Virus genome (UHGV): UHGV-0240317
Reading direction: 5' to 3' (one strand)
DNA: 64,000 nt
Origin: a virus
Part shown: piece after piece, positions 55,260-62,456 of the stretch
How positions within the stretch are numbered: position 1 is the first letter of the stretch
How the letters are laid out: each line of letters begins with the position of its first letter
Position numbers and translations under genes: made by a program
The notes under the pieces: generated by a model
The model's input: only the letters and a program-made list of their open reading frames with translations
Told to the model about the DNA's origin: nothing
Databases searched by the model: none

Positions 55260-55335
55260 TGGAGAATCCGAAGGGACTCGAACCCTTATAAGCCTGTTTT
55301 GCAGACAGGCACATAGCCATTTCTGTCACGGATTC
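55260..55335 (-). tRNA. tRNA-Cys (anticodon GCA)
   Basis: Acceptor GAATCCG/CGGATTC, T-arm GGGTTCGAGTCCC, anticodon loop CTGCAAA, encoded CCA. Confidence 0.75.
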
Positions 55336-55339
55336 AAAT

Positions 55340-55432
55340 TGGAGGAAGATACCAGACTTGAACTGGTACACCGATTTCTCAGCTACTGGCAGTTTAGCAA
55401 ACTGCTCCCTTACCTTTTAGGGTTAATCTTCC
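55340..55432 (-). tRNA. tRNA-Ser (anticodon GCT), class II
   Basis: 93 nt with long variable arm; anticodon loop TTGCTAA; T-arm ACCAGTTCAAGTCTGGT; CCA. Confidence 0.7.
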
Positions 55433-55433
55433 A

Positions 55434-56009
55434 TTATTTCTGTAATGCGTTCTTCATTTCTGGTGTTGCAATAGTGTCAATCACACCAGTTTTACAAGCA
55501 TCATCAAACCAGTCTGGTAAGATACCTGCTAAGAACCCATTGATATTCGTTTTAAGGTACTCTGCAATAAGGGCAGCTTCTTCTTCAATCATCTGCACAA
55601 CTTCATCTGCATAAGCTGTAATCTTTGAGATACCTTCATTAATCTTACTGACAGCTTGGTTAGCTAAATCAGAAACAGTATCAAGACCCTTATCAATAGC
55701 ATCTTGTAAGTCACTTAATACACCATTAACACTATCCAATGTACTGTTCATCATGTCAATAGCTTTTTGACCATACTCTGTAGCAACACCCATAATACCA
55801 CTGAATGGTGTACAACCAACTTGTTCTCCTGCTGCACCCATAACATTGGAGTATCCCTTTGCTACCTGCATACGTGATGAAAACTCATCAATAGACTTTT
55901 GACCGTAGTCTGTTAGGGTCTTAGTAGTTGCTGTAGTGCTTGTAAGGCTTGTTGTAAAGCTGTTTAGAAGGACTGTTGTAAGTCCAGCAGCAACAAGTTT
56001 CTCCTTCAT
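55434..56009 (-). CDS. hypothetical protein embedded in tRNA cluster
   Basis: 191-aa ORF, Ser/Thr/Ala-rich, helical. Confidence 0.4.
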   Translation of the reverse strand: MKEKLVAAGLTTVLLNSFTTSLTSTTATTKTLTDYGQKSIDEFSSRMQVAKGYSNVMGAAGEQVGCTPFSGIMGVATEYGQKAIDMMNSTLDSVNGVLSDLQDAIDKGLDTVSDLANQAVSKINEGISKITAYADEVVQMIEEEAALIAEYLKTNINGFLAGILPDWFDDACKTGVIDTIATPEMKNALQK

Positions 56010-56185
56010 TGTAGGGTCTGTTACAGAGCTAATAGAGCTTACAAGTGATGTAGAAGCAGCTACGGTTCCACCGAGAACTGCTGCACCAGTAATAAGTGGG
56101 TTAGAGAACCCTTTACCGGTTTTTTAAGAGATTAAAAATCTCCTTACCTTGTTCTGTCATCTCTTTCATTAAGCACCTTTGAAAT

Positions 56186-56261
56186 TGGTAGTCCAGTGGG
56201 ATTTGAACCCTCTTCTCATGTTTTTCAGACACGCGCTTTAACCATATAAGCTACTTGGACT
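56186..56261 (-). tRNA. tRNA-Phe (anticodon GAA)
   Basis: Anticodon loop CTGAAAA; T-arm GGGTTCAAATCCC; CCA. Confidence 0.7.
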
Positions 56262-56267
56262 ATAAAT

Positions 56268-56343
56268 TGGGGTGACCTACGGGATTTGAACCCGTATAGA
56301 CCATGTTCACAGCATGGGTCATTACCATTTATGATAAGGCCAC
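56268..56343 (-). tRNA. tRNA-His (anticodon GTG)
   Basis: Anticodon stem-loop CCATG-CTGTGAA-CATGG; T-arm CGGGTTCAAATCCCG. Confidence 0.7.
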
Positions 56344-56374
56344 ATTTAAGGACTCTCGCAAGAATCCTTAGAAG

Positions 56375-56450
56375 TGGCAGCGGCATAAGGATTTGAACCT
56401 TAATAGGACAGCTTCAGAGGCTGCTGCATTGCCAGTTATGCTATACCGCT
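56375..56450 (-). tRNA. tRNA-Gln (anticodon CTG)
   Basis: D-stem GCAT/ATGC, anticodon loop CTCTGAA, T-arm TAAGGTTCAAATCCTTA, CCA. Confidence 0.65.
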
Positions 56451-56455
56451 AAATT

Positions 56456-56534
56456 TGGTACTCCATATCGGATTCGAACCGATACATAACACAGATTTTA
56501 AGTCTGGCCTCTCTGCCAATTGGAGTAATGGAGC
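56456..56534 (-). tRNA. tRNA with anticodon TAA (Leu-type anticodon but class-I-like length)
   Basis: Anticodon loop CTTAAAA; T-arm ATCGGTTCGAATCCGAT; 7-nt variable region; isotype uncertain. Confidence 0.5.
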
Positions 56535-56536
56535 AT

Positions 56537-56611
56537 TGGCGGGGGATGTTGGAATTGAACCAACTTCTTCGATTTCAAAGACCGAGGTTTTAACCTTGTA
56601 AACTAATCCCC
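56537..56611 (-). tRNA. tRNA-Gln (anticodon TTG)
   Basis: Anticodon stem-loop TCGGT-CTTTGAA-ATCGA; T-arm GTTGGTTCAATTCCAAC; CCA. Confidence 0.6.
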
Positions 56612-56620
56612 TTTAAATCT

Positions 56621-57178
56621 TTACTTTCTCAGTGGATGAATAAAGAATGCCAACATAACTCTTTCCCTTGAGAATGCTCTTTCTTCTGGGACAACACTTT
56701 TTAGTTTCCATCCAATATAAATTCTCCAGTAAAACTGTTTACCAAAGACTTTAATTGATGGGATAAAAGCGAATAATCCCCAAGCATTACTGTTCCACAT
56801 TAGGAGATAACCTGTCTGATTATCTTCAGGGTCAGAACTTACGTTGATATTACCTTTCCACTTAGTAACATCTTTTACATCTCTTCCTAATACATGGTAA
56901 GAGAAGTTATAAGCTTTGTTTCTCCAGAGCCATCCGACTCTCTGCATGTAGACACCCAGCTTACCAATCTTTCTAATCTTAGCCCATCTTTTAACGTGGC
57001 CTTCATCACCATCAATCGGGTTGTCATAGGTCTCCATCCATCTGAATCCAAAAGGTAGATGCCCTTTCTTCTCACTGTAGAATGGAACTACGAAAGGTGC
57101 TAAGATGACTGCTAGGGTTGCTGCAAATGGTTCTAACAAAGCTAGGAAAATCCATGAAGCATATTTTAAATATCTCAT
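56621..57178 (-). CDS. hypothetical membrane protein embedded in tRNA cluster
   Basis: 185 aa; N-terminal TM segments IFLALLEPFAATLAVILAPFVV. Confidence 0.45.
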   Translation of the reverse strand: MRYLKYASWIFLALLEPFAATLAVILAPFVVPFYSEKKGHLPFGFRWMETYDNPIDGDEGHVKRWAKIRKIGKLGVYMQRVGWLWRNKAYNFSYHVLGRDVKDVTKWKGNINVSSDPEDNQTGYLLMWNSNAWGLFAFIPSIKVFGKQFYWRIYIGWKLKSVVPEERAFSRERVMLAFFIHPLRK

Positions 57179-57417
57179 CGTCTAATCCTTGTAAGGAGAT
57201 AAATGTTATTATTCGTTTCTAAACCTTCTGGTAAAACTGTCTCAAAAATAACACTCTTTAGCTGTCTACCACCAAAACAATCACGTATAAATCTTTCTAC
57301 TCTAGCGGGGTCACATAAGTACCCTACTTTTAAGAAAATGTGGTGTTCAACACCAATGACCCTGACAAACTCAATATTCTCACAGTTTTCATGTTCAACT
57401 ACTGTTAATGTTTGCAT
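57175..57417 (-). CDS. hypothetical protein
   Basis: 80-aa ORF. Confidence 0.4.
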   Translation of the reverse strand: MQTLTVVEHENCENIEFVRVIGVEHHIFLKVGYLCDPARVERFIRDCFGGRQLKSVIFETVLPEGLETNNNIYLLTRIRR

Positions 57418-57434
57418 AGTATCACCTTTTTATC

Positions 57435-57510
57435 TGGCGCAGGATAAGGGATTCGAACCCCTATTAACAGCTTCGTAGACTGTTGCTCTATCCATTTGAA
57501 CTAATCCTGC
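57435..57510 (-). tRNA. tRNA-Arg (anticodon ACG)
   Basis: Anticodon stem-loop ACAGT-CTACGAA-GCTGT; T-arm AGGGGTTCGAATCCCTT; CCA. Confidence 0.75.
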
Positions 57511-57515
57511 AAAAT

Positions 57516-57593
57516 TGGTGTTCCAAGACGGATTCGAACCGTCACTAATACAAGGTTTGAGCTTGCATCCTCTTCCAATTGGGATACTGGAAC
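57516..57593 (-). tRNA. tRNA with anticodon CAA (Leu-type anticodon but class-I-like length)
   Basis: Anticodon loop CTCAAAC; T-arm GACGGTTCGAATCCGTC; perfect acceptor stem; isotype uncertain. Confidence 0.5.
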
Positions 57594-57594
57594 A

Positions 57595-57669
57595 TGGTAC
57601 TCACTAAAGGACTTGAACCTTTTTCTTCATCTTGTAAGGGTGATGTTTTACCATATAAACTAAGCGAGT
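57595..57669 (-). tRNA. tRNA-Val (anticodon TAC)
   Basis: Anticodon loop CTTACAA; T-arm AAAGGTTCAAGTCCTTT; CCA. Confidence 0.65.
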
Positions 57670-57674
57670 GTGAA

Positions 57675-57760
57675 AGAGGTCTGAAGTTGTGCCGCTAACT
57701 CAACTCCGTGGAATTTGTTACGGTCTTCAGTTGACACCAGCGGTCTTTCACTTGACCTCT
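57675..57760 (-). ncRNA. structured non-tRNA element in tRNA cluster (7-bp closing stem AGAGGTC/GACCTCT, inner 6-bp stem CTGAAG/CTTCAG)
   Basis: No T-loop/CCA; contains GAAGACCGT box related to the repeated elements at 59928-60707. Confidence 0.3.
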
Positions 57761-57764
57761 GAAT

Positions 57765-57841
57765 TGGTGCTGCTCACAGGACTCGAACCTGCATTTCCAT
57801 CCTTACAAGGGATGTGTAATAGCCAATTATACGAAAGCAGC
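57765..57841 (-). tRNA. tRNA-Thr (anticodon TGT)
   Basis: Anticodon stem-loop CATCC-CTTGTAA-GGATG; T-arm GCAGGTTCGAGTCCTGT; CCA. Confidence 0.65.
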
Positions 57842-57847
57842 ATTGTT

Positions 57848-57922
57848 TGGAGCATCCAGAGGGAATCGAACCCTCAACCTCAGTTTGGAAGACTGTAATT
57901 TTCCCGTTTAAACTATGGATGC
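57848..57922 (-). tRNA. tRNA-Gly (anticodon TCC)
   Basis: Anticodon loop CTTCCAA; T-arm GAGGGTTCGATTCCCTC; CCA. Confidence 0.7.
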
Positions 57923-57928
57923 ACTAAT

Positions 57929-58004
57929 TGGTGGAGAAGCAGGGAATTGAACCCTGTACTTAAGTTTGCAAAACTTATGTTTTAACCATGTAAACTACAT
58001 CCCC
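57929..58004 (-). tRNA. tRNA-Ala (anticodon TGC)
   Basis: Anticodon stem-loop TAAGT-TTTGCAA-ACTTA; T-arm CAGGGTTCAATTCCCTG; CCA. Confidence 0.65.
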
Positions 58005-58010
58005 AATGTC

Positions 58011-58086
58011 TGGTACAGGTGGAGGGAATTGAACCCATCGTCTTACTGATTAAGAGTCAGCCGCATAACCATTTTGCTACACCTGC
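58011..58086 (-). tRNA. tRNA-Lys (anticodon CTT)
   Basis: Anticodon loop CTCTTAA; T-loop TTCAATT; acceptor GCAGGTG/CACCTGT; CCA. Confidence 0.6.
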
Positions 58087-58093
58087 ATTAATT

Positions 58094-58170
58094 TGGTACA
58101 CCTAGAGAGATTCGAACTCACACTGAGCAGATTCTAAGTCTGCTGCCTCTACCAATTGGGTTATAGGTGC
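58094..58170 (-). tRNA. tRNA with anticodon TAG (Leu-type anticodon but class-I-like length)
   Basis: Anticodon stem-loop GCAGA-CTTAGAA-TCTGC; T-loop TTCGAAT; isotype uncertain. Confidence 0.5.
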
Positions 58171-58171
58171 A

Positions 58172-58624
58172 TTAAATCAAATGTCTTGAGAATTGACTGT
58201 GGCAATTTGGACACAAGAACCGAAGATTCTCTTTTCTATCATCTAACCAGTTCTCGTTAATGTGGTCAACATCAAGAGTTAGAGGATTACCCAACCAATC
58301 AGGTAACTGACCACATTTAGAGCACTTGTATTCGACACCAGAGGCTATTAAAGCTCTTCTTAGTTGTGAAGACCTCGCTCTTTCACCAGATTCACGTAGA
58401 ATTAGGATTTCTTCAGGCTTTCTTTTTGGTACAGTTTTAATCTTACCAGCCTTTTGTCCGAGAAAATGAGAAGTGTCTATTTCAAACTTTTCTATAACAC
58501 GCTTTAGATGTGACTGAGAACCACCTGCTGGTTTTCTCCCAAGCTTAATAAGTACTTCTCTGAATGATACTGAATCCTTTACTAAAGGTTCAAGAATATC
58601 TTTAGTCAAACTGCTGCGTGCCAT
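58172..58624 (-). CDS. HNH endonuclease (free-standing, inside tRNA cluster)
   Basis: 150 aa; C-terminal HNH/zinc motif CSKCGQ...LDVDHINENW...NLRFLCPNCH. Confidence 0.7.
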   Translation of the reverse strand: MARSSLTKDILEPLVKDSVSFREVLIKLGRKPAGGSQSHLKRVIEKFEIDTSHFLGQKAGKIKTVPKRKPEEILILRESGERARSSQLRRALIASGVEYKCSKCGQLPDWLGNPLTLDVDHINENWLDDRKENLRFLCPNCHSQFSRHLI

Positions 58625-58894
58625 GTGTCAATCTCCCATTAAATCTTTTTAGAGAACTTCTAAGAACCTAAGCAACAAGGTTCCACAACAAGCTGTAATA
58701 ACCTTAGAAGCCCTCTAAAAAGACCTAAAAAGGTCTTTGCATAGTCTTGTTTAATCCGGTGACTAGAACCTTTGGAGAGCTTGATATTATCTCTTCTCCG
58801 TGACACCTACTAGGTGCTTTATCAGTGCGTACAACAATACACGCGGTATACCAAAGCAACATCCGAATGAAGCTTGGCTTTAAATCTTATTAGG

Positions 58895-58982
58895 CGGTAA
58901 GTAAAGGAGTCGAACCCTCACCGTATCTCTACAGTGGCAACAGTTTTCAAGACTGTTTGGCTGCCATTAGCCGCTACCTACC
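58895..58982 (-). tRNA. tRNA-Ser (anticodon TGA), class II
   Basis: 88 nt; anticodon stem-loop ACAGT-CTTGAAA-ACTGT; long variable arm; T-arm GAGGGTTCGACTCCTTT; CCA not encoded. Confidence 0.6.
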
Positions 58983-58995
58983 CCTAATAAGACTT

Positions 58996-59078
58996 TGGCA
59001 TGGGACGGAGGATTTGAACCCCTTTGAAACGGTTTTGGAGGCCGTTGCTCATGCCTTAGAGTCTTAACATCGTCCCAT
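58996..59078 (-). tRNA. tRNA-Trp-like (anticodon CCA) with enlarged D-loop
   Basis: Perfect acceptor ATGGGAC/GTCCCAT, T-arm GGGGTTCAAATCCTCC, anticodon loop CTCCAAA on a 4-bp stem; 83 nt. Confidence 0.45.
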
Positions 59079-59220
59079 ATTATAATTCGAAGCTTACCGT
59101 ATTATCTCAACACTGTAAAGCCCCTTCTCAGATTATTTACATGTTCTGGAAAACATGAGATACAGACCACCTCCCTACAGGAAGACCCGCTTAGGTCGTC
59201 TAAGTAATCTGCTAACTAAT

Positions 59221-59297
59221 TGGCACACCCTACAGGATTCGAACCTGTAACTAACGATTTAGAAGACCGTTGCTCTATCCAATTGAACTAAGGGTGC
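59221..59297 (-). tRNA. tRNA-Arg (anticodon TCT)
   Basis: Anticodon stem-loop ACGGT-CTTCTAA-ATCGT; T-arm ACAGGTTCGAATCCTGT; CCA. Confidence 0.7.
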
Positions 59298-59544
59298 ATT
59301 AATCTTTAAAGACTCTCTGAGAAAGCCCTTAAAGATGCCCACCTTATTAATCATACCGTGGGCTAGTACGCCAAATTCTTCGATGAGGGATTGGAAGACC
59401 TCACTGGTGTTTAGCCTATCAAGCTACTGCCAGAAAAACATTGTCGTTTGCATTTATTTTAAATTTGCAAAATAGACGCTACGCAACGAAAACTAAGGTT
59501 ACTATAAAGTAGTCACATCTCAATGTCAACAACTTTATTGAAAG

Positions 59545-59619
59545 TGGTTGTAGGTGAGGGTATCGAACCCTCTTCTAACGGTTATCAGCCGTTTGCATTA
59601 CCATTTATGCTAACCCACA
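59545..59619 (-). tRNA. tRNA-Ile (anticodon GAT)
   Basis: Anticodon stem-loop AACGG-CTGATAA-CCGTT; T-arm GAGGGTTCGATACCCTC; CCA. Confidence 0.7.
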
Positions 59620-59621
59620 AT

Positions 59622-59698
59622 TGGAGGTTCAGATGGGAATCGAACCCACATTCATAGGGCTTATGAGACCCTTGCATTACCTTATCTGCGACTGAACC
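59622..59698 (-). tRNA. tRNA-Met (anticodon CAT)
   Basis: Anticodon loop CTCATAA; T-arm GTGGGTTCGATTCCCAT; perfect acceptor GGTTCAG/CTGAACC. Confidence 0.65.
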
Positions 59699-59702
59699 AT
59701 AT

Positions 59703-59778
59703 TGGTAGAAGTGGAGGGATTCGAACCCATCGCCTGTCAGATTAAAAGTCTGCCGCATCACCATTCTGCTACACTTCC
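59703..59778 (-). tRNA. tRNA-Lys (anticodon TTT)
   Basis: Anticodon loop CTTTTAA; T-loop TTCGAAT; CCA. Confidence 0.6.
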
Positions 59779-59927
59779 ATTAAATTATCTTTGTAGATAA
59801 GCTACCCAGACTTGCTTAAGGTCTGTAGCGATGTGTATTGTTGGGTTTAAATCTAGAATTTACCCTTTCACCCTTTGTGGTCGCATACTCACAGGTAAGC
59901 TTAATAACTTATCTACAAAGATAATTA

Positions 59928-60060
59928 CCAGACCGTTGTTTAACATCTTAAGTGCTACCATTACACCAACTCGACATCTGCCGAGTGAAGGAATCGAACC
60001 TTCTCCTTTTCTTTACCGGAGAAATAGATTGTTTAAAGTTTGCTGTAAACGGTCTTCTGT
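59928..60060 (-). ncRNA. structured RNA element (repeat-family member 3) containing a tRNA-like module without anticodon arm
   Basis: Closing stem ACAGAAGACCGTT/AACGGTCTGG; interior has canonical T-arm GAAGGTTCGATTCCTTC, 7-bp acceptor-like hairpin ACTCGGC-agat-GTCGAGT and D-arm-like GTGT-AATGGTA-GCAC. Confidence 0.35.
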
Positions 60061-60072
60061 AAATTTGTTGAG

Positions 60073-60151
60073 CCAGACCAAGTTTTAAAATTTTTTCAAA
60101 ATTAAATTGGCTTGAAAATATCATACGTACTTGCTGTAATTGGTCTTCTGC
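60073..60151 (-). ncRNA. structured RNA element (repeat-family member 4)
   Basis: Plus-strand CCAGACC...TTGCTGTAATTGGTCTTCTGC; same terminal boxes as members 1-3. Confidence 0.3.
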
Positions 60152-60211
60152 TCCTTTAAAGAATACTCGTAAGAACTCTTTAAGGGAGGGGCTAAATAGC
60201 CCTCTCAAAAT

Positions 60212-60289
60212 TGGCGGTTACGAAGGGATTTGAACCATCATCATCTCCCGTGACAGGGGAGTATTTTAACCAAATTAAACTACATAACC
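60212..60289 (-). tRNA. tRNA-Asp (anticodon GTC)
   Basis: Anticodon stem-loop CTCCC-CTGTCAC-GGGAG; T-loop TTCAAAT; CCA. Confidence 0.7.
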
Positions 60290-60294
60290 TTTAT

Positions 60295-60382
60295 TGGTGT
60301 GCCGTGTAGGAGTCGAACCTACCGAGTCTCAATGACAAGGGATTTACAGTCCCCACCGCTACCATCTACGGGATAACGACAC
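60295..60382 (-). tRNA. tRNA-Tyr (anticodon GTA), class II
   Basis: 88 nt; anticodon stem-loop GGGGA-CTGTAAA-TCCCT; long variable arm; T-arm GTAGGTTCGACTCCTAC; CCA. Confidence 0.7.
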
Positions 60383-60391
60383 ATTTAAATT

Positions 60392-60468
60392 TGGCGGTTA
60401 GTCAGGGATTCGAACCCTGTGCCATTCGCTTAACAGGCGACCGCACATACCTTATGTGCTTCCTAACC
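60392..60468 (-). tRNA. tRNA-Asn (anticodon GTT)
   Basis: D-stem GCAC/GTGC; anticodon loop CTGTTAA; T-arm CAGGGTTCGAATCCCTG; CCA. Confidence 0.7.
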
Positions 60469-60479
60469 TTAATACATTG

Positions 60480-60541
60480 CCAGACCGTGTTTTTTCTTTT
60501 ATCCGCAAAAAGTATTTTGTTGCTGTAAACGGTCTTCTGTA
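60480..60541 (-). ncRNA. structured RNA element (repeat-family member 1)
   Basis: Plus-strand CCAGACCG...TTGCTGTAAACGGTCTTCTGT; on minus strand directly follows tRNA 3' end. Confidence 0.3.
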
Positions 60542-60545
60542 AATT

Positions 60546-60621
60546 TGGAGGCGGGTGCAGGAGTCGAACCTGCCGATACCATGCTAATGAGACATGTGAG
60601 ACGCCCTTTCTCTATACCCGC
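60546..60621 (-). tRNA. tRNA-Met-type (anticodon CAT), second copy
   Basis: Anticodon stem-loop CATGT-CTCATTA-GCATG; T-arm GCAGGTTCGACTCCTGC; could be initiator or Ile-lysidine type. Confidence 0.55.
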
Positions 60622-60633
60622 AATTCTTAATGA

Positions 60634-60707
60634 CCAGACCAAATCTCTTCTTTGTCCGATTTACCTTCAGATGAATAAGATTAAGTTTGCTGTAATTGGT
60701 CTTCTGT
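60634..60707 (-). ncRNA. structured RNA element (repeat-family member 2)
   Basis: Plus-strand CCAGACC...TTTGCTGTAATTGGTCTTCTGT. Confidence 0.3.
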
Positions 60708-60713
60708 CAAAAC

Positions 60714-60791
60714 TGGCGTTCCAGAAGGGATTTGAACCCTCAGATATCCACTTTGAAAGAGTGGTGACTTTACCATTTTGTCTACTGGAAC
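60714..60791 (-). tRNA. tRNA-Glu (anticodon TTC)
   Basis: Anticodon stem-loop CCACT-CTTTCAA-AGTGG; T-arm GAGGGTTCAAATCCCTT; CCA. Confidence 0.7.
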
Positions 60792-60798
60792 ATTAATT

Positions 60799-60875
60799 TG
60801 GTCTCTGTTGGAGGACTTGAACCTCCGGCCTTACCGCCCCAAACGGAACGCTCTACCAAGCTGAGCTAAACAGAG
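60799..60875 (-). tRNA. tRNA-Pro (anticodon TGG)
   Basis: D-arm GCTC-AGCTTGGTA-GAGC; anticodon loop TTTGGGG; T-arm GGAGGTTCAAGTCCTCC; CCA. Confidence 0.75.
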
Positions 60876-61040: not shown

Positions 61041-62456
61041 TTACCAGATGTAACGGTCAATCATTACTGCTCTGAGCATTACGCTGGTTGGGTCAAACTT
61101 CTCACCACCAAGCAGAGCTTTTAAAGTGGCTGGAGAGAACCCTGATACTATTGCTACACCATTATCCTTAACAGACACTTCGCAAGTACCACTACGGTTT
61201 GCTAAGTACCAGAATACCAGTTGTGGCATTTCGTATCCAGCTTTTTTGTACTTACTACGAATTACTTCAAAGTTTGTACGACCATTTGCACCGTCAACCT
61301 GATTAAACTCCATATCAGAGAAGATGATAAGCTTACTTGGCATATCTTTCTGAGTCAAGTTGTTTCTCTTACCTGTCTCAAGGATGCGGTCAAAAGCTGC
61401 TTGTAAGTTAGTTGAACCGTATTCAACGTGTCGCATCACCTGACGATGACGGTTTAGTAAATCACCACTCAGTTCGATGAAGTGAGGGTTTGTTGAATAG
61501 ACCATTAACTCATTTTTAAAGCAACCTGTATTGCGTTCTGCTACATACAAGGCAAGTGATACACCAATATCAAGAGCAGTAATGGAGCCAAATTTAACCC
61601 AAGACATTGAGTTTGAAACATCAGACATACATAGAATGTTTTCACCCTCTGCCATCCAGTTTGGTAGTGCTTTCCACTGCTCATTAGCAACATCTGCATT
61701 GCCATACTTAACAGATTTAATCACATCGTATGGGTAAACAGCACCAGCATTAATCTTAGTCTCACCCTTTGATAAGGACTCAATGTAAGCTTTGTAGCGT
61801 TCTCCATCTTTACGGTTAAACAGTTTTTGGTAACGTGCAGCAGCAAGTGAAGGAATCTTACTGTAGTCAATCTTGCCGAACTCATTAGCAGAGATTTTTT
61901 GCTCAACTGTATCAGATAGTGCAGACAAAAGTGTGCGGTACTCTTTCTCACTCAAGTTGGCAAACTTGCAGAAACGTTTTACAAACTGCTTATGACGTGG
62001 TTTGACTCGTGGTAACCACTTAGCTACCAAACCTGCTGTTGCAGGGTCTAGTAATGCTGCTTCTAAATGTTTGAAGGCATCTGTCTCGAAACGAGTACCT
62101 ACGAAGATTTTGAAGTCATCAAAACGACCAAGTTCTGCAATCTTATCCATAATGCGAAGAACCTGTGTAGGCTCTAAAACTTTATCTTCACTTGCTTGAA
62201 GCAAAACAGTTCTGAAGGCTTTACGCTCACCCATACCTTCTCGTACATCTCGCATATGAAGCAAAATACGAACTGCAACATCAACATCCTCACGCAAAGC
62301 TTTGTAGAACAAGTCTGGTAAGATTTCTACATTACTACGGCTTGAACCAGCAGCTTTGTAAAAGTCTACAAGAGCAGACATTGATGAAGTATGGTTTACA
62401 GCACCATTTTCAGTTCGACCTGCATGAAGGTGCGCATGTTTAAATAATTCGCTCAT
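61041..62456 (-). CDS. vWA-domain protein with MIDAS motif; candidate Ro60/TROVE-like or DUF2828-type RNA-associated protein
   Basis: 471 aa; helical N-terminal region then ILCMSDVSNSMSW (DxSxS) ... LIIFSDMEFNQ pattern that I recall from Ro60 vWA domains; ATG 62456. Confidence 0.45.
   Translation of the reverse strand: MSELFKHAHLHAGRTENGAVNHTSSMSALVDFYKAAGSSRSNVEILPDLFYKALREDVDVAVRILLHMRDVREGMGERKAFRTVLLQASEDKVLEPTQVLRIMDKIAELGRFDDFKIFVGTRFETDAFKHLEAALLDPATAGLVAKWLPRVKPRHKQFVKRFCKFANLSEKEYRTLLSALSDTVEQKISANEFGKIDYSKIPSLAAARYQKLFNRKDGERYKAYIESLSKGETKINAGAVYPYDVIKSVKYGNADVANEQWKALPNWMAEGENILCMSDVSNSMSWVKFGSITALDIGVSLALYVAERNTGCFKNELMVYSTNPHFIELSGDLLNRHRQVMRHVEYGSTNLQAAFDRILETGKRNNLTQKDMPSKLIIFSDMEFNQVDGANGRTNFEVIRSKYKKAGYEMPQLVFWYLANRSGTCEVSVKDNGVAIVSGFSPATLKALLGGEKFDPTSVMLRAVMIDRYIW

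Follow-up and report, generated by a model that had tools for sequence, protein, structure and literature searches.

Three tRNA-Leu genes with short variable regions in a Felix O1-like phage and their family among phages and bacteria

Three short-armed tRNA-Leu genes and their conservation

The window analysed here, a stretch of 64,000 nucleotides of the virus genome UHGV-0240317, carries three tRNA genes with leucine anticodons (UAA, CAA, and UAG) in which a short variable loop replaces the long variable arm of canonical tRNALeu, a shape referred to as type I as opposed to the long-armed type II. Megablast analysis assigns the window to Felixounavirus (Felix O1-like, Ounavirinae; phages of E. 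coli and Salmonella), with 94-97% identity to many records and a coverage among Felix-like records ranging from 46% to 100%. The genes were detected with ARAGORN and with the Rfam covariance model RF00005 (gathering score 29), and their cloverleaves were segmented separately. ARAGORN matches exactly the coordinates, the anticodons (TAA, CAA, and TAG), and the 77-79 nt lengths of an earlier sequence-only reading of this DNA, and its drawings, together with the separate segmentation, bear out the variable regions of 5-7 nt described there (Table 1). The RF00005 matches of the three genes are full-length (model positions 1-71), with E-values of 5e-8 to 5e-9, and are far beyond chance. Because the two programs agree with the genes of that reading, on anticodon positions as well as on short variable regions, the misfolding by manual parsing that it had considered is excluded, and its proposal of atypical phage tRNAs is supported: the tRNA-Leu genes exist, are conserved, and have the type I shape.

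The variable regions read GUUAUGU (7 nt) in the UAA gene, AUUAGU (6 nt) in the CAA gene, and UCAGU (5 nt) in the UAG gene. All end in U48, and none amounts to the arm of canonical type II tRNALeu (more than 10 nt, with a stem). The three genes have in common an acceptor stem of 7 bp, the T loop UUCGAAU, A73, and an encoded CCA. Like E. coli tRNALeu, they leave C13.A22 without a pair and have AAUUGGNAGA as D loop. The D stem comprises three Watson-Crick pairs in the UAA gene (C10-G25, U11-A24, and C12-G23) and in the CAA gene (U10-A25, C11-G24, and C12-G23), and two in the UAG gene (C11-G24 and C12-G23), where A10.C25 is a mismatch; the copy of this UAG allele in phage wV8 has G10-C25 instead. 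Since a 3-bp D stem is normal in E. coli tRNALeu, the "weak" D stems of the sequence-only reading hold for the UAG gene alone and not for the other two. The UAA gene further exhibits the D loop C-AAUUGGCAGA, G1.U72, and a C27.U43 mismatch, while the CAA gene has the D loop C-AAUUGGAAGA and G1-C72, and the UAG gene has AAUUGGUAGA at D-loop positions 14-22, G1.U72, and a second mismatch, U50.U64.

In the reference record of Felix O1, the three genes already bear the annotation tRNA-Leu, with UUA, UUG, and CUA as the codons read, and a few GenBank records label such genes "tRNA-OTHER". Felix O1 and phiSUSP1 have the UAA gene without any change, and the Mordin copy departs from it at 1 nt; the CAA gene differs at one D-loop position (20, A vs C) from the copies of Felix O1, phiSUSP1, and Mordin. 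These two genes therefore vary by 0-2 nt across the genera Felixounavirus, Suspvirus (phiSUSP1), and Mooglevirus (Mordin), and the DNA around the tRNA-Leu genes is 84-100% identical in the segments aligned by blastn. Comparison of the UAG gene with 5,426 complete E. coli genomes by blastn returns no match at E <= 0.01, in a search where a 77-nt query against 28 Gb detects near-identical copies only; recent copying from tRNAs of the host or of prophages is therefore rejected. In the same cluster, ARAGORN reports that the tRNA-Ser (93 and 90 nt) and tRNA-Tyr (88 nt) genes retain their long variable arms.

Table 1. Position of the tRNA-Leu genes and of neighbouring features in the window
Feature	Position	Strand	Description	Evidence
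tRNA-Leu(UAA)	56456..56534	-	79 nt with encoded CCA	ARAGORN; Rfam 47.5 bits
tRNA-Leu(CAA)	57516..57593	-	78 nt with encoded CCA	ARAGORN; Rfam 43.7 bits
tRNA-Leu(UAG), allele A	58094..58170	-	77 nt with encoded CCA	ARAGORN; Rfam 51.0 bits
tRNA cluster	55260..60875	-	26 tRNA genes, 19 amino acids, no Trp	ARAGORN, Rfam
HNH endonuclease open reading frame (ORF)	58172..58624	-	150 aa; ends 2 nt upstream of tRNA-Leu(UAG)	Pfam PF01844
Replacement stretch	58099-58627		529 bp in place of 63 bp of Felix O1	blastn break points, alignment
5' remnant of allele B	58628..58637	-	10 nt, GGGAGATTGA; blastn homology resumes at 58628	alignment
DUF7338 ORF	56621-57178	-	185 aa; between tRNA genes	
ORF without family	57175-57417	-	80 aa; between tRNA genes	
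471-aa ORF	61041-62456	-	adjoins the tRNA cluster	matches DUF2828 and DUF7788
CAU-anticodon tRNA gene	59622-59698		Met, fMet, or Ile2	
CAU-anticodon tRNA gene	60546-60622		Met, fMet, or Ile2	
Stretches with sub-threshold matches	59979-60043, 59002-59076, 58633-58732, 59298-59602	-	see text	Rfam

Structure, spread, and exchange of the type I family

Compensatory changes support the four stems of the cloverleaf in an alignment that groups 149 tRNALeu of type I, almost all of them less than 93% identical to one another, with the cloverleaf imposed. Of its stem cells, 97.2% pair, and double changes occur in 20 out of 20 stem pairs; the covariation score reaches 0.864, as compared with 0.199 for shuffles and with 0.14 at most for slid partners. 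In the D stem, 97.1% of the cells of the three pairs are paired, and each pair covaries. The tertiary pairs are nearly invariant (U8-A14 in 148 tRNAs out of 149, A15-U48 in 146, and G19-C56 in 148), and A14, G18, A35, U54 U55 C56, A58, and A73 are invariant. The G1.U72 wobble serves as first acceptor pair in 58 of these 149 tRNAs, including the UAA and UAG genes of the window; it is similarly frequent among the type II Leu, the Val, and the Glu tRNAs of phages and may be a general phage tRNA trait.

Type I tRNALeu form a large and diverse family that extends across unrelated phages, bacterial tRNA arrays, and Streptomyces chromosomes. The UAG gene shares 81% identity, without gaps, with tRNA-Leu genes of Mycobacterium phages, and also aligns to genes of Streptomyces and Enterococcus phages. 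The Bixzunavirus Patter encodes tRNA-Leu of 74-76 nt with the anticodons caa, gag, and cag, the Streptomyces phage MulchMansion has two tRNA-Leu(tag) genes, and in the Enterococcus phage CCS1 a tag gene of type I accompanies a taa gene of type II. The D-loop and T-loop motifs at type I spacing, searched in IMG/VR over at least 120 loci, yield at least 123 matching tRNAs; at least 104 of them have Leu anticodons, of all six kinds, and a length of 74-79 nt. A second, unrelated type I family for UAG is found in DT571/2 (T5-like), the Salmonella phage PVP-SE1, the Pseudomonas phage PPSC2, and Felix O1. Overall, the hosts of the phages with type I tRNALeu are Mycobacterium, Streptomyces, Enterococcus, Pseudomonas, and enterobacteria. 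Ordinary type II genes are present in T5 (tRNALeu(UAG)) and in a Vibrio phage, and several phages carry both types. In one sample of viral contigs, searched with a motif pattern blind to arm length, 72 type II and ~8 type I tRNALeu are among the matches listed, and all Leu genes in the sampled viral loci amount to 107 type II and 16 type I; type I thus represents roughly 10-13% of tRNALeu in the sampled viral contigs.

The same motif scan in bacterial genomes reports 70 ordinary tRNATrp and 45 type I tRNALeu. Many of the latter reside in tRNA arrays (8-kb stretches with 11-34 tRNA genes), and others are single Streptomyces genes with the anticodon CAA and the variable loop ACAGU. The arrays occur in metagenome-assembled genomes and isolates of Acidobacteriota, Actinomycetota, and Planctomycetota (loci L143, L224, L231, and others), with up to 34 tRNA genes per 8 kb; locus L231 combines four tRNALeu genes of type I (gag, caa, tag, and cag).

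In the phage loci with type I Leu, tRNA-Ser is long in 97 out of 100 genes and tRNA-Tyr in 39 out of 41. Since these phages retain long-armed Ser and Tyr tRNAs, loss of the arm was clearly tolerated only for Leu. The seryl-tRNA synthetase depends on the length of the variable arm, which fits its retention in tRNA-Ser, and the arm is lost specifically in the isotype whose synthetase reportedly needs none.

Regarding the origin of the family, nearest neighbours were scored against 2,402 tRNAs with the anticodon and the variable region left aside. Type I Leu account for 34-38 of the top 40 neighbours of the window genes. Neighbours outside the family belong to mixed isotypes (Glu, Lys, Thr, Trp, and Arg) and not to type II Leu, and this scoring therefore speaks neither for nor against an arm deletion from a type II tRNALeu. 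The closest non-Leu neighbour of the UAA gene is a tRNA-Glu(ctc) in the IMG/VR locus L014. Twelve tRNAs with the CCA (Trp) anticodon in IMG/VR loci (for example L014 and L090) also fit the Leu-type D-loop pattern. The CCA-anticodon tRNAs and this tRNA-Glu may have arisen within the family by a shift of anticodon, or they may be ordinary tRNAs with the same motif. Derivation of the family from tRNATrp, which shares the CAAUUGGUAGAG motif and provides 70 out of 120 bacterial and 12 viral matches to the D-loop/T-loop pattern, was ruled out by A73 in place of G73 and by a D stem of 3 bp in place of 4 bp; only 2% of phage tRNATrp have A73, and the window anticodons are UAA, CAA, and UAG, not CCA.

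The position occupied by the UAG gene, at which the window departs from Felix O1 (Table 1), exists in three states among Felix-like phages. Felix O1, phiSUSP1, and Mordin have another type I allele, B, alone; wV8 has allele A alone, devoid of any remnant or HNH ORF; and the window has the remnant of allele B, then the HNH ORF, and then the complete allele A. At 90% identity or more, the HNH gene is found only in about ten Felix-like records. Its nearest relative outside those records shares 57.5% identity with it, comes from the Pseudomonas phage PPSC2, and likewise adjoins a tRNA-Leu(tag) of type I. This arrangement suggests that the UAG slot is a recombination hotspot where tRNA-Leu alleles would be exchanged in link with the endonuclease. 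Phage T5 encodes a type II tRNA-Leu(UAG) (85 nt) adjoining the HNH gene hegC, and DT571/2, at the same T5-type position, lacks hegC and has a tRNA-Leu(UAG) of type I (77 nt). Here again, a difference of tRNA-Leu allele correlates with an adjacent HNH gene.

Several other features surround the tRNA-Leu genes. The two small ORFs located between tRNA genes, one of them with a DUF7338 hit, are variably present among Felix-like phages, and Mordin has neither. The cluster comprises two tRNA genes with a CAU anticodon, as well as stretches with sub-threshold Rfam matches (tRNA, 22.2 bits; tRNA-Sec-like, 22.4 bits; a microRNA model, 32.7 bits; and weak tmRNA-like matches), which may be decayed tRNA genes or tRNA-like stable RNAs such as those annotated in T5. 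The ortholog of the 471-aa ORF is named, in the Mordin record, an RNA-binding protein with a von Willebrand A domain, and the Streptomyces phage MulchMansion has a "Ro-like RNA binding protein" adjoining its own tRNA cluster. The product of the 471-aa ORF may therefore be a Ro/TROVE-like protein handling tRNAs.

Leucine identity positions and codon use

The five E. coli K-12 tRNALeu isoacceptors were aligned by position with the window genes. U8, A14, A15, G18G19, A20a, U48, U54 U55 C56, A58, A73, and CCA are found in all three phage genes, and with them the contacts of A14 with U8, A15-U48, G18:U55, G19-C56, and U54:A58. At positions 14-22, the UAG gene is identical to leuW, leuV, and leuU, and the UAA and CAA genes differ at position 20 only. 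The 3-bp D stem with an unpaired 13:22 is likewise common to the phage genes and to E. coli tRNALeu. The isoacceptors with the same anticodons, leuZ (UAA), leuX (CAA), and leuW (UAG), also share U8, A14, A15-U48, A73, and CCA, but they differ by a variable arm of 13-15 nt, the range of all five isoacceptors, by G9 and G59, and by stems devoid of sequence similarity to those of the phage genes; leuW has G37 where the phage gene has A37, and the anticodon-loop flanks differ. The E. coli leucyl-tRNA synthetase (LeuRS) is reported to use A73, U8-A14, A15-U48, G18G19, A20a, and U54-A58, and to need neither the anticodon nor the long arm (PMC9976931; PMC6614811).

The combination of A15-U48 and A73 is specific to leucine among the tRNAs compared. 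In phage loci, type I Leu (n=197) have A15-U48 in 95% and A73 in 100% of cases, close to the 96% and 99% of type II Leu. The corresponding figures are 65% and 59% for Arg and 64% and 2% for Trp, and no other isotype comes near Leu on both. For the Mooglevirus Sf14, tRNAscan-SE isotype models rank Leu first for the three Leu genes (67.4, 49.1, and 60.2), in a paper that is silent on the variable arm (PMC12482277). By analogy with Mordin, the UAA and CAA genes of Sf14 are presumably orthologs of those of the window, while its UAG gene is probably allele B, so that its isotype score may not cover the UAG gene of the window.

The window has a GC content of 39%, and the Leu codons of its 54 long ORFs are distributed as CTT 28.5%, TTA 26%, CTG 15%, TTG 13%, CTA 12%, and CTC 6%. 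In E. coli, CUG makes up about half of the Leu codons and CUA about 4%, and UUA/UUG, UUG, and CUA are read by its three minor tRNALeu isoacceptors. The three phage tRNAs supply these host-minor isoacceptors, which fits codon supplementation and leaves their shape unexplained. The meaning of the codons was addressed with 43 pairs of orthologous ORFs from the window and from the Citrobacter phage Mordin (12,498 codons). TTA, TTG, and CTA are exchanged for CTT, CTC, or CTG 117 times and among themselves 131 times; non-Leu replacements make up 8-11%, mostly Ile, Val, and Met. These figures match those of codons read by host tRNAs alone. Given this free exchange and the leucine-like character of the replacements, all six Leu codons behave as synonyms, and standard-code translations of the window ORFs yield strong Pfam matches.

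Probable charging by the host, possible causes of the shape, and meaning for phages

Taken together, these features indicate that the three genes are working type I tRNALeu, most likely charged with leucine by the host LeuRS during infection, a reading to which we assign a probability of about 75%. Charging without the arm is plausible because bacterial LeuRS is reported to read A73 and the corner formed by the D and T loops, all of which are retained. From this we infer aminoacylation by the host enzyme and use by the ribosome, where the three tRNAs would decode UUA/UUG, UUG, and CUA, the latter together with other CUN codons by wobble. These are the codons of the host-minor isoacceptors, and the phage uses UUA and CUA more than E. 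coli does. The short loop itself may result from neutral streamlining, or it may have been selected if armless tRNALeu are poor substrates of toxins directed against long-armed tRNAs.

Known type I tRNALeu provide the closest comparison. The tRNALeu(CAA) of Streptomyces coelicolor has a Leu anticodon, a 5-nt loop (ACAGC), and a bacterial cloverleaf, and coexists with type II tRNALeu and one LeuRS (PMC6614811). Its own LeuRS leucylates it in vitro, as does the human mitochondrial enzyme (PMC6614811), and good charging requires at least 5 nt in the variable loop, position 48 included (Fan et al. 2019, PMC6614811). It differs from the window genes by C48, in place of the U48 that pairs with A15, and as a single chromosomal gene rather than a member of a phage cluster. 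The Streptomyces chromosomal genes retrieved here (L155, L176, and L235; anticodon CAA, D arm GCCCAAUUGGCAG, loop ACAGU, and T loop GGUUCGAAUCC) closely resemble it and have one extra D-loop nucleotide, whereas the window genes match the E. coli D-loop length. One motif pattern retrieves both the phage genes and these Streptomyces Leu(CAA) genes; the likeness to S. coelicolor is drawn from its published loop and anticodon, tRNAs being too short for a firm phylogeny. The tRNALeu of animal mitochondria are also type I, with A73 and A14 as identity elements and a bacterial-type LeuRS (PMC9976931). However, their D and T loops are degenerate and their LeuRS is a dedicated one, while the phage genes keep G18G19 and UUCGAAU and would use the only LeuRS of the host, alongside type II tRNALeu. 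According to a review summarising Larkin et al. 2002 (PMC9976931), "minimalist" E. coli tRNALeu without variable and anticodon arms are charged and edited by E. coli LeuRS as long as A73 and the tertiary contacts of the D and T loops are preserved; these are in vitro constructs, whereas the phage genes are natural and possess a normal anticodon arm. Older T5 biochemistry was considered as evidence for charging of type I tRNALeu and rejected, as the T5 tRNALeu(UAG) is type II.

Several observations weigh against charging by the host. E. coli LeuRS left the type I tRNALeu(CAA) of S. coelicolor uncharged in vitro, and the authors hold that this enzyme charges type II tRNALeu only, its leucine-specific domain favouring a large variable loop (PMC6614811). 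Contacts between the long arm and the C-terminal domain of LeuRS are described (PMC3561953), and the published E. coli element 47n, an unpaired residue at the base of the arm, has no equivalent in the phage genes, which are devoid of a variable stem. The mismatches of the three genes (C27.U43, A10.C25, and U50.U64) also count on this side, as does their minimum-energy fold, which is not the cloverleaf for any of them (the cloverleaf lies 1-4 kcal/mol higher); in view of the covariation, thermodynamic folding was treated as uninformative. The codon-interchange test is indirect, since host tRNAs read the same codons. The failure of E. coli LeuRS may not carry over to the phage tRNAs, because the S. 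coelicolor tRNA has C48 and the related genes have one extra D-loop nucleotide. The U48 and the exact E. coli D loop of the Felix-type genes may explain a different outcome.

Another account bears on the cause of the shape, in competition with neutral loss, and not on whether the genes function. The arm would have been lost under selection, as host toxins recognise or cut class II tRNAs, and leucine decoding would be kept when the host tRNALeu is disabled. In tRNATyr, the variable loop is where Retron-Eco7/PtuAB and Septu cut; the T5 tRNATyr escapes by means of a different loop (PMC11555353 for Retron-Eco7). Like MenT3, AbiEii, an abortive-infection toxin, seems to favour class II tRNAs, and a mycobacterial tRNALeu is a target of MenT1. 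Unrelated phages that infect at least five host genera repeatedly carry type I tRNALeu, which also recur within tRNA arrays, proposed elsewhere as anti-defence elements (PMC12803027); at least two unrelated sequence families for UAG suggest repeated acquisition, and the anticodon loops differ from those of the host (PMC12482277). The T5 tRNATyr is the nearest precedent, being of a class II isotype with a variable region unlike that of the host and replacing the tRNA cut by retron-Eco7/PtuAB (Azam et al. 2024, PMC11555353). However, its arm is changed and not lost, its isotype is Tyr, and its link to defence is experimental, whereas that of the Leu genes is hypothetical. Selection by defence is made doubtful by the fact that no defence is known to act on tRNALeu through the arm in enterobacteria, and nothing in the window ties the genes to a defence. 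Moreover, Ser and Tyr tRNAs are still long-armed in these phages although tRNATyr is a proven target, ~90% of the tRNALeu in viral contigs are still type II, and several phages mix the two types. It is only tentatively, therefore, that armless tRNALeu may be viewed as a widespread phage counter-defence, made of molecules that would evade nucleotidyltransferases of the AbiEii/MenT type and nucleases of the PtuAB/Septu type, would still be substrates of any bacterial LeuRS, and would move between unrelated phages, sometimes with HNH genes.

It is improbable that the three genes are decaying or non-translational tRNA-like RNAs (decoys, processing signals, or pseudogenes), with leucine decoding relying on the host tRNALeu only. 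The "tRNA-OTHER" labels, Rfam scores among the lowest in the cluster, a stem mismatch in each gene, the minimum-energy folds, and the failure of E. coli LeuRS on the related Streptomyces tRNA would fit such RNAs. Against this, the genes are nearly invariant across three phage genera, and the family exhibits compensatory changes in all four stems, an invariant A73, and near-invariant tertiary pairs, with Leu anticodons only, of all six kinds, and an encoded CCA; a decoy would not need to keep the full LeuRS identity set. Least probable of all is the altered identity raised by the sequence-only reading, in which another amino acid, for example Phe through A35, A36, and A73, would be charged and the phage would recode or mistranslate UUR/CUA: the ordinary type I shape, the A73 and A35-A36 shared with tRNAPhe, and the mixed isotypes of the nearest neighbours outside the family, where type II Leu is missing, are compatible with it, but the 15-48 and 73 signature is that of tRNALeu and of no other isotype, the LeuRS identity positions outside the arm are present, G3.U70 is absent from the three genes, Leu is the top-scoring isotype for the Sf14 genes (PMC12482277), and TTA, TTG, and CTA swap freely with CTT, CTC, and CTG, with leucine-like replacements and standard-code ORFs matching Pfam, so that a changed identity is unsupported and the sequences give no sign of it.

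The annotation of such genes as tRNA-Leu is not new, and type I tRNALeu are already known from animal mitochondria and S. coelicolor. No description of short-armed tRNALeu in phages was found in the literature, within a limited coverage of subscription journals that may have missed an older account. The review literature still states the opposite rule (PMC9976931), and in 2019 the LeuRS of S. coelicolor was claimed to be alone among prokaryotic enzymes in handling both tRNALeu shapes (PMC6614811). The window genes and the several hundred relatives retrieved show that phages of Proteobacteria, Actinobacteria, and Firmicutes commonly carry armless tRNALeu. If these tRNAs are charged as proposed, LeuRS enzymes of hosts in general, including that of E. 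coli, must accept armless tRNALeu; likewise, if the counter-defence view were true, E. coli LeuRS would charge type I tRNALeu in vivo, contrary to the published in vitro conclusion. The family is a natural and diverse test set for the recognition of tRNA by LeuRS, and a reason to revisit the records in which such genes are labelled "tRNA-OTHER" or pseudogenes. It also offers a testable link between the tRNA genes of phages and the newly discovered defence systems with which hosts target long-armed tRNAs.

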